From IMG/VR virus record IMGVR_UViG_3300030060_000981, positions 58,681-78,680 of that record: a DNA stretch of 20,000 bases, one strand, 5' to 3'. Origin of the DNA: an uncultured virus (IMG/VR IMGVR_UViG_3300030060_000981). Taxonomy: Duplodnaviria; Heunggongvirae; Uroviricota; Caudoviricetes. The notes under the pieces were generated by a model. That model searched no databases, was not told the DNA's origin, and saw only the letters and a program-made list of their open reading frames with translations. Shown here in pieces: positions 2 through 5,432 of the stretch. Position 1 is the first letter of the stretch, and each line of letters begins with the position of its first letter. A program made the position numbers and the translations under genes.

Positions 2-673
2 GAGTGCGTGTAATACTAGATCATCTAATTCTACACCCTCTTTGATACATCTATTAAGATGTTTCTTAACTCGTGCAACAATAGTTCTATCGGGGAACTC
101 ACATAGTGTTGCAATCTGCTTTGCAAAGTTACATTTAGTGGTGATACTATCAACATCTAAATCTATCTCTGCTTCTGGTTCTATCCATTTAACATACTCA
201 TTGTCTGCCCAATTAAACTCAAAAGGTTTAACAACTGCGTTCCTCAAATCATTATGTGCCTCATAATAAGTATGTGGTGCAATAATAATAGGTTGATCAA
301 TAACTTTACTGAAAGCGTATGCAATTAGGTTGGGTTGATATACATTATCACCACCAAATCCTATAAAGTCACCTTGATAAATGCCATCCAAAAATGGTAA
401 ATTGTCATAACATTCATGTAGAATTCTTGCTACTTTACCAGAGTGGTTAGTATCAATATCCTCATGCGATTCATTGATCTTAATTTTAACTTTGTTGAAT
501 ACAGATTTAGTACCAACAAAGAAATTGCCAGTGGCAGGATTAGTACCCCAAACTATTGCTGGAGAACCATCAATCTTAACTGATATTTTAGAATCAGCAG
601 TGAACCAGTTTAATACACTTAGATCACCACTTAATACCAAATCTTCAGGGTGTTCCATGTGTGTGTTTTTCAT
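2..673 (-). CDS. Conserved cyanophage protein (DUF6267-like), 3'-partial, with nucleotidyltransferase-like KxDG motif
   Basis: Not in the ORF track because it runs off the left edge. Manual translation from ATG at 671-673 gives MKNTHMEHPEDLVLSGDLSVLNWFTADSKISVKIDGSPAIVWGTNPATGNFFVGTKSVFNK...GIYQGDFIGFGG..., open to the window edge. The HPED / KxDGxPA / FFVGTKSxFNK pattern is recalled from T4-like marine phage proteins. Confidence 0.8.
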   Translation of the reverse strand, partial: MKNTHMEHPEDLVLSGDLSVLNWFTADSKISVKIDGSPAIVWGTNPATGNFFVGTKSVFNKVKIKINESHEDIDTNHSGKVARILHECYDNLPFLDGIYQGDFIGFGGDNVYQPNLIAYAFSKVIDQPIIIAPHTYYEAHNDLRNAVVKPFEFNWADNEYVKWIEPEAEIDLDVDSITTKCNFAKQIATLCEFPDRTIVARVKKHLNRCIKEGVELDDLVLHAL

Positions 674-679
674 ACTATT

Positions 680-736
680 ATTATAAACTAAAAAACCCCC
701 GAATGGGGGTTGTGTGTGCCAGTTCTAAAACTGGTT
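680..736 (-). promoter_or_regulatory. Early promoter cassette copy 1 (palindrome, stem-loop, TATAAT)
   Basis: Minus strand reads AACCAGTT-TTAG-AACTGGCACA (715-736), then TATAAT at 680-685, 6 nt before the ATG at 673. Confidence 0.75.
690..711 (-). terminator. Intrinsic terminator nested in the promoter spacer
   Basis: Minus strand AACCCCC-ATTC-GGGGGTT followed by TTTT, just downstream of the stop at 725. Confidence 0.75.
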
Positions 737-994
737 GTTGATAAGTCTTTTTGTGAAATCTTCAAGATATAATAGAGGGAGTAAGATTAACTCTAGTCCA
801 TCTAATTCTCTTACAGATCTTCTTACTTTCTTTTCAACATTTTTAACTGGTGTTTCTGTCACTTTAACTGCCTCAATCTGTGTAATCTTATTTACACTTT
901 TTGCTGGAGTTACAGTGGTTTTCTTAACAACAGTTCTAGGTGTTTTCTTAGCAGTTGTAGATTTAACTGCTGAAGTTCTTCTCCTAGTTGCCAT
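725..994 (-). CDS. Hypothetical basic K/T/R-rich phage protein
   Basis: ORF 725..1003; the likely start is ATG at 994 (MATRRRTSAVKSTTAKKTPR). Low-complexity basic N-terminus and hydrophobic C-terminal helix. Confidence 0.7.
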   Translation of the reverse strand: MATRRRTSAVKSTTAKKTPRTVVKKTTVTPAKSVNKITQIEAVKVTETPVKNVEKKVRRSVRELDGLELILLPLLYLEDFTKRLINNQF

Positions 995-1020: not shown

Positions 1021-1079
1021 GTGGGACTTACAGGACGTAATTTCTCTGCTGAACAGAGACAACCATAGATCCTTGCCCA
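1021..1079 (-). ncRNA. Candidate structured RNA hairpin, 3' companion of the rod RNA or leader of the 725-994 gene
   Basis: Minus strand GGGC-A-AGGAT-CTATGGTTG-TCTCTG-TTCAG-CAGAGA-AATTAC-GTCCT-GTAA-GTCC folds by eye into nested stems GGGC/GTCC, AGGAT/GTCCT and TCTCTG/CAGAGA. Confidence 0.5.
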
Positions 1080-1088
1080 AATGGTGAG

Positions 1089-1250
1089 GGAAAACAAAAC
1101 TGAGGGGAAGTCAATTACCTCAACAGTCATTTCTCTGCTTCTTATCATCTATCCTAACGGTATTTTTTACGATATGCGTGATGCAGTGACCAACCGTAAC
1201 ATAATTAAGATGAATGTCAGAGTAGTTGAGAACCTCGTTTGTTTTCCACA
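1089..1250 (-). ncRNA. Candidate ~160-nt rod-shaped non-coding RNA
   Basis: Six colinear nested complementary segments (plus-strand coordinates): 1089-1098/1238-1247, 1102-1105/1233-1236, 1119-1124/1225-1230, 1133-1137/1218-1222, 1145-1150/1208-1213, 1157-1161/1193-1197. The 5' end coincides with the expected start site of promoter copy 2. Confidence 0.65.
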
Positions 1251-1255
1251 TTTAT

Positions 1256-1312
1256 ATAATACATGATTTTGGTGGCAGTGGGGTAAAGCGTGTGCCACTT
1301 TGTTGACTGTCC
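1256..1312 (-). promoter_or_regulatory. Early promoter cassette copy 2
   Basis: Minus strand GGACAGTC-AACA-AAGTGGCACA (1291-1312) with -10 TATTAT at 1256-1261, the same spacing as the other copies. Confidence 0.7.
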
Positions 1313-4491: not shown

Positions 4492-4547
4492 ATTATAACA
4501 GAAAATCTTGGATTATGAAAGAGCGTGTGACAGTTCTCGAAGTGCCA
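4492..4547 (-). promoter_or_regulatory. Early promoter cassette copy 3
   Basis: Minus strand TGGCACTT-CGAG-AACTGTCACA (4526-4547) with extended -10 TGtTATAAT (TATAAT at 4492-4497). Confidence 0.75.
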
Positions 4548-5376: not shown

Positions 5377-5432
5377 ATTATAACACAGATATTGCCGAGT
5401 TAACGAATGGTGTGACAGTTCTTAAACTGTCC
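5377..5432 (-). promoter_or_regulatory. Early promoter cassette copy 4 (best palindrome)
   Basis: Minus strand GGACAGTT-TAAG-AACTGTCACA (5411-5432) with TGtTATAAT (TATAAT at 5377-5382). Confidence 0.8.

Follow-up and report, generated by a model that had tools for sequence, protein, structure and literature searches.

A covarying structured RNA at the head of predicted early transcripts in T4-like cyanophages

The DNA described here, called the window throughout, is a stretch of 20,000 nucleotides (nt) from an uncultured tailed virus (IMG/VR record IMGVR_UViG_3300030060_000981, positions 58,681 to 78,680 of a 78.7-kb record). Near the start of the window, a 308-nt gap lies between the stop codon (1312) of a gene for a 115-residue protein and the ATG (994) of the next gene, and the neighbouring genes are all on the minus strand. 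Most of this gap is taken up by a sequence that an earlier note, made from the letters alone, had flagged as a promoter-driven, rod-shaped RNA of about 160 nt. Comparison with related phages indicates that this element, which we refer to as the rod, belongs to a family of structured RNAs that is conserved among the T4-like cyanophages (Kyanoviridae) and not yet catalogued.

Results

Structure of the rod in the window

The rod is read from the minus strand, its RNA running from 1247 to 1083, and its parts are listed in Table 1. All six complementary segments named in the earlier note are present where that note placed them and nest as it described in the minus-strand RNA, and the paired 5' and 3' ends that it proposed correspond to a helix, P1, of 10 base pairs (bp) that covaries among homologues. 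The covariance model R1 matched the rod over model positions 1-133 (cmsearch, 119.4 bits, E 5e-25).

The folding energy of the rod was unremarkable. The minus strand folded at -37 kcal/mol with a z-score of -1.53, and 13 of 200 shuffled sequences folded equally well; the z-score of the plus strand was -2.38. Among short (minimal) homologues the values ranged from -1.1 to -2.25, with one at +0.70. By energy alone, therefore, the comparison with shuffles that the earlier note had recommended did not rise above chance, and since in the window the energy even favours the wrong strand, it was rejected as a criterion.

ARAGORN found no tRNA here, and the whole window gave no match to Rfam 15 at the gathering score. 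A cmscan of positions 950-1350 on both strands was equally empty at E<=10, with the 6S, manA, wcaG, glnA and PhotoRC families among those searched, so that the impression of no likeness to the known cyanophage motifs holds.

Table 1. Positions of the rod, its parts and the adjoining features in the window
Feature	Position	Strand	Remarks
Upstream dyad GACAGTCAACAAAGTGGCACA	1291..1311	-	starts at the upstream gene's stop codon; part of a repeated stem-loop-plus-promoter cassette
-10 hexamer TATTAT	1256..1261	-	predicted start about 1249; position conserved among homologues
Rod RNA, entire covariance-model match	1083..1247	-	P1-P2-P3-P4, apical insert and 3' tail; model R1, cmsearch
P1, 5' strand GGAAAACAAA	1238..1247	-	pairs with 1089-1098; 10 bp
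Single C-G pair between P1 and P2	C1237-G1100	-
P2, GAGG / CCUC	1233..1236 / 1102-1105	-
P3, CUCAAC / GUUGAG	1225..1230 / 1119-1124	-
P4, CUCUG / CAGAG	1218..1222 / 1133-1137	-
Variable apical insert	1143..1215	-	UCAUCU/AGAUGA stem, loop motif UAAUUA...GUUAGGAUA, inner hairpin ACGGU/ACCGU
Inner helix, UCAUCU / AGAUGA	1213-1208 / 1150-1145	-	within the variable insert
Innermost hairpin, ACGGU / ACCGU	1197-1193 / 1161-1157	-	within the variable insert
Apical or internal loop AGAAG	1138..1142	-	faces AC 1217-1216; almost invariant in alignments A2 and A3
3'-side internal loop between P4 and P3, AAAUGACU	1125..1132	-	family consensus ACAUGA(Y); conserved
3'-side loop GGUAAU and linker between P3 and P2	1106..1118	-	linker of variable length; GGUAA invariant in A2
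P1, 3' strand UUUGUUUUCC	1089..1098	-	pairs with 1238-1247
3' tail CUCACC	1083..1088	-	pyrimidine tail; kept in most of 45 aligned members; weaker in divergent members
Module 2, second conserved folded RNA domain	1023..1078	-	downstream of the rod here; in P-SSM5 and others, nested within the apical loop of the rod
First gene of the unit	725..994	-	89 residues from ATG 994; 92 residues from TTG 1003
Intrinsic-terminator-like hairpin ending the unit	694..711	-	embedded in the next cassette

Homologues in cyanophage DNA

A blastn search of 50,697 phage records matched 14, every time in unannotated spacers: P-SSM2 (three records), P-SSM5, S-SSM4 (two), S-SSM6b, P-SSM7 (two) and five single-cell-derived marine virus contigs. 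The rod part lay at a single place in each record. Alignment of five homologues gave a common core of about 90 nt, to which the inner 73 nt of the window's rod are an insert at the tip of P4. S-SSM4 and P-SSM7 lack this insert, and in P-SSM2 and P-SSM5 different sequence takes its place. The size of about 160 nt given in the earlier note is thus right for this phage but does not describe the conserved unit.

Searching IMG/VR with a pattern for the 5' half of the rod recovered 58 stretches, and the 3' half followed 75-149 nt downstream in 60 of 63 such 5'-half matches, the remaining three running off the contig. A mid-core pattern independent of P1 recovered 68 stretches. The P4 tip takes inserts of 0-85 nt. 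Model R1 matched all 38 of the sources tested. In the 78.7-kb record of the window it detected a single copy, and five contigs of 57-107 kb likewise had one apiece. In cellular genomes the 5'-half pattern, allowing exact matches only, hit seven stretches in unrelated metagenome-assembled genomes, none of which scored with the model.

Together, at least 82 distinct homologues were found in T4-like cyanophage DNA, including those of the cultured phages P-SSM2, P-SSM5, P-SSM7, S-SSM4 and S-SSM6b and of dozens of uncultured contigs. When 26 related loci were compared with Rfam at E<=1, the only matches were the tRNA-Val of S-SSM4 and one sub-threshold match to sroH. The family is absent from Rfam 15, and text-based literature searches turned up no description of it. 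In the P-SSM2 record AY939844.2, the locus tag PSSM2_069 is missing from the series 068-070 exactly where the rod and two other folded elements described below, modules 2 and 3, are situated.

Covariation, strand and coding potential

The helices were assessed in two alignments, one made with MAFFT from 45 distinct homologues and the other, of 82 distinct sequences, fitted to the model and so leaning towards it. In the MAFFT alignment 99.6% of the pair cells held standard pairs, compared with 41-54% when the 3' partner was slid. Changes on both sides were found in eight pairs (65 cells), namely all five pairs of P4, two of P3 and the terminal pair of P1, and the covariation score was reached by none of 500 shuffles. 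The model-fitted alignment was 98.9% paired, with double changes in 20 of 24 pairs (180 cells) and again no match among 500 shuffles; P1 and P2 accounted for 12 changed pairs of their 15. The collection of homologues and the test for compensatory change that the earlier note had called for therefore came out strongly in favour of the fold.

Each helix contributed. In divergent members P1 takes the forms UCAUCAAC/GUUGAUGA, GAAUAAA/UUUAUUC and GGGAAACAAAU/AUUUGUUUCCC, so that its sequence changes by compensation, yet the position at which it starts is constant. The outer conserved pair of P3 is U-A in 35 sequences, C-G in 27, U-G in 8 and A-U in 7, and three of the four P3 pairs covary in the 82-sequence alignment. 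All five pairs of P4 have changed on both sides, giving, for example, CUCUG/CAGAG, GACUG/CAGUC, GUCUG/CAGAC and CUAAG/CUUAG. The two innermost helices are retained only in the subset of members that share the window's type of insert, and within that subset the outer insert helix covaries (CAUCU/AGAUG, ACUCU/AGAGU, ACCUG/CAGGU).

For P2, the RNAalifold consensus offered a local hairpin (RGG/CCU) instead. This hairpin was ruled out and P2 chosen because two divergent homologues preserve P2, by CGG/CCG (L136) and CUGGG/CCUAG (L118), and both break the rival hairpin. Conceivably the RNA switches between P2 and the local hairpin.

The pairing also identified the strand. G-U and U-G pairs together filled 84 cells, whereas A-C and C-A pairs filled one, which assigns the helices to the minus-strand transcript. 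The best conserved letters are unpaired: GGUUC before P3, UA between P3 and P4, AC and AGAAG at the tip, ACAUGA between P4 and P3, and GGUAA after P3.

We found no sign that the rod is translated. Stops are present in all three frames in 62 of 74 full-length members, the others being open in differing frames, and the ATG that stands just before P1 in many copies is in a different frame or absent among homologues. These observations indicate that the rod is not coding, and the substitutions were compensatory and not codon-periodic. A small protein gene, for which the window offers an open reading frame (ORF) of 43 residues on the minus strand (1251-1120) and one of 61 residues on the plus strand (1081-1266), as well as the frequent ATG, has accordingly next to no chance of being the explanation. 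The covariation and the lack of a conserved frame instead support what the earlier note had put forward, a structured, non-coding RNA encoded on the strand that the upstream promoter transcribes.

Promoter and upstream cassette

The first base of P1 is about 2 nt 3' of the predicted transcription start near 1249, in agreement with the earlier expectation of a start (1249-1250) almost on the first base of the terminal stem. Of the full promoter that had been described, the -10 hexamer at 1261-1256 was borne out and is supported by the homologues, but the -35 in the window is poor and a consensus promoter scan did not list the rod promoter. In 73 distinct upstream contexts, a -10 hexamer with at least five of six consensus positions ended 4-12 nt before P1 in 62, mostly at 7-9 nt; among the 71 contexts with a hexamer, 59 had its end at 7-9 nt. 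An extended TG was present in 28 of the contexts and a -35 with at least four of six positions in 47, and S-SSM4 has a TTGACA-17-TATAAT arrangement. Judged from these motifs, the rod is placed directly behind a predicted host-type (sigma-70-like, often extended -10) promoter.

A different motif, TAAAGTGT...TATAGTG, was seen upstream of the rod in the loci L094, L100, L126, L163, L177, L192, L204 and L216, and also upstream of a larger RNA, described below, in L209 and L217. It is possibly another class of promoter.

The dyad upstream of the -10 hexamer is often followed, in homologous contexts, by a G+C hairpin and a T run that overlap the -35. This cassette precedes nearly every homologue and recurs in the window's own record at 53706-53769 (88%) and 56081-56106, so that three copies are present in the 78.7 kb, with more recognizable by motif. 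Further 'AAsTGnCACA ... TATAAT' cassettes were noted on the minus strand at about 2457-2505, 4492-4535 and 5377-5420 of the window and at 53716-53760 of the record; the one near 2505, inside a methylase gene, could have arisen by chance. Kyano_Gp96 is the gene that follows the second copy of the cassette.

Cassettes of this kind are known from T4-like phages as promoter-early stem-loops (PeSLs), as set out in PMC4122927 and PMC4503421. The window's promoter region (1311-1256) has what defines a PeSL, a stem-loop or terminator with an early sigma-70-type promoter, repeated in a variable region. Shared with the published cassettes are the upstream dyad, often a terminator hairpin, the early promoter repeated in a variable region, and flanking units that differ between relatives. 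The PeSL concept covers the promoter and terminator cassette only, however, and the rod and the folded modules past the start are outside it.

Downstream genes and transcript context

The earlier note had stated that no credible ORF follows the promoter. This did not hold: the ATG of the 89-residue gene is 88 nt past the end of the rod, no terminator-like site lies between the two, the first being at 711-694, and the gene is conserved, with a homologue in P-SSM7 gp057 (PSSM7_057, E 1e-11), which also follows a rod. From the lack of a terminator and the conserved gene downstream, the rod is predicted to head an mRNA as the 5' domain of its leader. The proposal of an early phage non-coding RNA consequently stands in part. 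The conserved, structured, non-coding element was confirmed by the comparisons above, but a discrete small RNA of about 160 nt was not borne out in this mRNA leader context.

What follows the rod varies. Of 72 distinct downstream contexts, 37 had an ORF that started no more than 60 nt away, at least 10 mutually unrelated N-termini being represented; module 2 came next in 18, module 3 in 8 and module 4 in 3, and 6 had something else, including a fresh promoter cassette without an ORF. The proteins encoded nearby (DUF6267, an N6/N4 methylase, a helicase and unknowns) offered no functional clue, and a 141-residue protein encoded after the rod in many of the contigs had no Pfam match.

The unit headed by the rod ends within another cassette (680-733, minus strand), made up of a dyad at 733-712 around the stop of the 89-residue gene, the terminator hairpin at 711-694 and a -10 TATAAT at 685-680. 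The ATG (673) of the DUF6267 gene that follows is only 6 nt past this -10, and its message may be leaderless. In the DUF6267 protein (2-673, minus strand), K-I-D-G near the N-terminus resembles, by eye, motif I of nucleotidyl transferases (ligases).

Other folded modules and their nesting

Module 2, which lies downstream of the rod in the window, turned up in 98 stretches of viral DNA; some contigs had two copies, and it often occurred independently of the rod. The full rod was also present in 41 of 80 fetched stretches; in the remaining ones module 2 stood by itself behind a promoter or gene, or lay inside a larger RNA family. Module 2 showed compensatory changes of its own (UCUCUG/CAGAGA versus UCUCAA/UUGAGA; AGGAU/GUCCU versus AGGGU/GCCCU) and folded at -18 kcal/mol (z -1.96).

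The larger RNA measures about 120 nt at its smallest, and inserts extend it to as much as about 400 nt. Its sequence begins with UUGAGGG directly after a promoter, closes with CCCUCAA and contains the hairpins GGUUCAGGUGUAAGCGAUUCC and GGUGAAACC. It occurs in P-SSM2 (L001, locus 715-835, PSSM2_070-PSSM2_071) and in L090, L142, L150, L151, L164, L195 and L219. One hairpin of the larger RNA was seen to carry the P3-P4 core of the rod as an insert and, conversely, the larger RNA was found inserted in the rod tip; module 4 and the window's type of insert nest likewise. In the window's own genome, at about 56000-56110 of the record (minus strand, L065), an early cassette is followed by module 4 (GUGGAGGGG...GGUGAAGCACCUCUUGA...CCCUCCAC) and then by an ORF of 52 residues. 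Here module 4 closes on its own 5' end directly after the -10, and it is thus a second 5'-closed fold heading an early unit in the same genome. None of the rod, module 2, module 4 and the larger RNA had a counterpart in Rfam in the related loci scanned.

As the modules stay intact whether arranged in tandem or nested either way, each fold as such appears to be under selection. Like the rod, module 2, module 4 and the larger RNA seem to be units of one kind that can be exchanged for one another.

Module 3 (ACGAGGAGAUGGAUGUGCCUC...ACAUCC; reverse complement of L141 at 1640-1700, L143 and many other loci) has interleaved complementarity, GAGG/CCUC and GGAUGU/ACAUCC, which suggests a pseudoknot. 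Its inner stem covaries (CGG/CCG, GGG/CCC, UAG/CUA).

Metatranscriptome matches

Contigs from RNA libraries of four marine metatranscriptome studies contained pieces of the rod (1085-1158 and 1126-1227), module 2 and flanking sequence. These contigs give no ends, strand or level and may include DNA carry-over, and they are consistent with transcription without proving it. None of the pieces listed covers 1228-1247, a point from which we draw no conclusion. In two marine RNA libraries module 2 had the highest summed depth (83 and 86), against about 10-19 for the flanks in X1 and about 2 in X11; its depth pools many phages.

Discussion

Comparison with known RNA elements

In bacteria and phages, stem-loops at the very 5' end of an mRNA stabilise it, a general principle of mRNA decay. 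The rod shares with such stem-loops the pairing of the first transcribed bases, its place at the head of an mRNA and its independence from the gene downstream. It differs in being much larger, in its conserved loops and insert-tolerant tip, in a fold kept across a family and in occurring once per genome, and any effect of the rod on decay is putative.

A comparison can also be drawn with the coremin motif, or xrRNA-C, an exoribonuclease-resistant RNA (xrRNA) of eukaryotic viruses described in PMC6546385 and PMC10520033. Both are small, modular, conserved viral folds for which a stop to a 5'-3' nuclease has been proposed; the enzyme of the coremin host is Xrn1, whereas for the rod RNase J or RNase E would apply. 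According to PMC6546385, coremin has at its 5' side a 3-bp hairpin, the loop of which is YGAD or YGNNAD, and a 10-nt spacer, of which A16-A20 are essential, before a second hairpin. The rod has AACUAC directly before a hairpin, as at the essential end of that spacer (PMC6546385). In the family this string reads (Y)NRACUA(C/G) and stands directly before P4; its first four bases are part of helix P3, and the spacer exceeds that of coremin by 2 nt. Membership in the coremin class was rejected because the first hairpin with its YGAD loop is missing and the bases upstream of the shared string (AAACGAGG) pair in the covarying P1 and P2. The S-SSM4 type alone could form a 2-bp stem with a CGAG loop.

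Smaller likenesses were dropped as well. These were a T-loop in the P4 loop, which is lost in members with inserts; a k-turn in the ACAUGA loop, which has no tandem G-A; and a tRNA-like CCA end or small-RNA seed in the tail, which varies in divergent members.

Proposed role and alternatives

The reading that we rank first, with a probability of roughly 0.35, is that the rod works in cis at the 5' terminus of an early transcript, as a shield or a handle. P1 pairs the predicted first bases of the RNA with a segment that lies 75-150 nt further on, and P2, P3 and P4 stack on P1. Sealing the 5' end in this way would leave only about 0-3 unpaired nucleotides, and the conserved loops would hold the fold compact. 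Such a sealed end and compact fold could deny RNase E its 5' sensing and RNase J its 5'-3' exonucleolytic entry and so shield the early message, and the conserved loops may in addition serve as a handle for a protein. We placed this reading first because the pairing of the first bases persists through sequence change and because the main decay enzymes of the host enter at free 5' ends. In cyanobacteria both RNase E and RNase J are essential, and RNase E has a 5'-sensing mode (PMC8682795 and PMC10939160).

A number of observations weigh against this reading. The conservation of the loops goes beyond what a mere 5' stabiliser needs, and a mere stabiliser would be expected at many early promoters, whereas the rod is found once per record. 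Since the folding energies are not exceptional, the rod is, by nearest-neighbour energy, no unusually stable roadblock. Eleven of 73 rod copies are without a sigma-70-type -10 and have another upstream motif instead. In S-SSM4 the rod precedes a tRNA-Val gene, and in the contigs L007 and L025 it is directly followed by another promoter cassette without an ORF, an arrangement that resembles a free-standing RNA gene. These last contexts fit a released, stable RNA better.

In that alternative, the rod and its tip module would be released from the primary transcript as a stable RNA acting in trans, binding a host or phage protein as decoy, sponge or scaffold. We regard it as possible though doubtful. 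The single copy per record, the independence from the downstream gene, the position before a tRNA, as in stable-RNA operons, and the fresh promoters of L007 and L025 all speak for it; modules nested in a helix-closed rod would be protected in a processed product, and the conserved asymmetric purine loops resemble a binding platform. On the other hand, neither a terminator nor a recognizable processing signal follows the rod, and in half of the contexts an ORF starts 15-60 nt past it. A decoy for RNA polymerase, for which the earlier note had pointed to an architecture like that of 6S RNA, is a sub-case. The rod has the overall form, paired ends, internal loops and proposed early production in common with 6S RNA, but its loops are asymmetric (2 x 7 nt and 2 x 11-24 nt), it lacks the large central bubble that resembles an open promoter, a match to the 6S family of Rfam even at E<=10 and a 3' end of its own, and its conserved unit is only about 90 nt. 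The likeness to 6S did not survive these comparisons.

An action on RNA polymerase close to the promoter is an unlikely alternative, in which the rod would cause processive antitermination or pausing and allow early read-through of the hairpin terminators of the region. Antitermination RNAs next to promoters are familiar as put and as nut/boxA of lambdoid phages and rrn operons. The rod resembles them in lying just past an early promoter, in low copy number, in independence from the downstream gene and in having no terminator of its own, and terminator-promoter cassettes are dense in the region; its place between an early promoter and terminators would suit an action in cis. The fold differs from the two-hairpin put type, and expression of the next gene needs no read-through, since a -10 belonging to that gene (685-680) stands just past the terminator. 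Moreover, the complement of the picocyanobacterial box A primer, as printed in PMC9769826, is absent from the minus-strand RNA of 1083-1261, where a likeness of 6-8 nt is confined to the opposite strand.

Less probable again is a riboswitch or other sensor controlling translation of the gene behind the rod. The helix-closed core, the conserved internal loops and the peripheral stem of variable length are aptamer-like, and an ORF often starts 15-35 nt past the tail. Nevertheless, the genes downstream, with their 10 or more different N-termini, are mutually unrelated, the rod and the gene can be separated by further modules, a tRNA or a promoter, neither a terminator serving as expression platform nor an alternative fold masking the start site was found in the window, and no riboswitch of Rfam matched. 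Very unlikely is an element acting as DNA, that is, a palindromic mobile or recombination cassette or a replication signal that mimics an RNA rod. It would account for modules that are bounded by inverted repeats, change position and occur nested or in tandem, and that travel with the repeated stem-loop-plus-promoter cassette of the PeSL type (PMC4122927), but not for the strand-specific, RNA-type excess of G-U over A-C pairs; the helices covary with no transposase-type repeat sequence kept, and each module is single-copy per record.

Self-cleaving ribozymes are abundant in marine viral DNA, and one at the head of the transcript would suit a small RNA whose peripheral helices vary and whose two internal loops have conserved unpaired purines. 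We give it even slimmer odds: no Rfam ribozyme family matched at E<=10, and in minimal members one of the 'loops' becomes a plain hairpin loop. A likeness of the loops to those of the hairpin ribozyme was dropped, as there was no Rfam match and minimal members are without the second helix.

Implications

T4-like cyanophages kill a large share of the Prochlorococcus and Synechococcus in the ocean, yet their means of controlling and protecting early transcripts are poorly understood. A single flagged hairpin has led here to a conserved, covarying RNA family in five cultured phages and dozens of uncultured contigs, and several folds behave as interchangeable building blocks. As cultured phages that carry the rod (P-SSM2, P-SSM5, P-SSM7 and S-SSM4) exist together with their hosts, the proposed roles are directly testable.

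We speculate, with considerable reserve, that these cyanophages may possess a kit of autonomous, helix-closed RNA folds (the P2-P4 core of the rod, module 2, module 4 and the 'UUGAGGG...CCCUCAA' RNA of about 120 nt) that are joined in tandem or nested at the 5' ends of early transcripts. If the folds of this kit were the prokaryotic-virus counterpart of xrRNAs, or handles for reprogramming the host RNA polymerase or ribosome, they would constitute a new class of modular viral RNA device. If true, the kit would help to explain how phage messages survive while the RNA of the host is destroyed.

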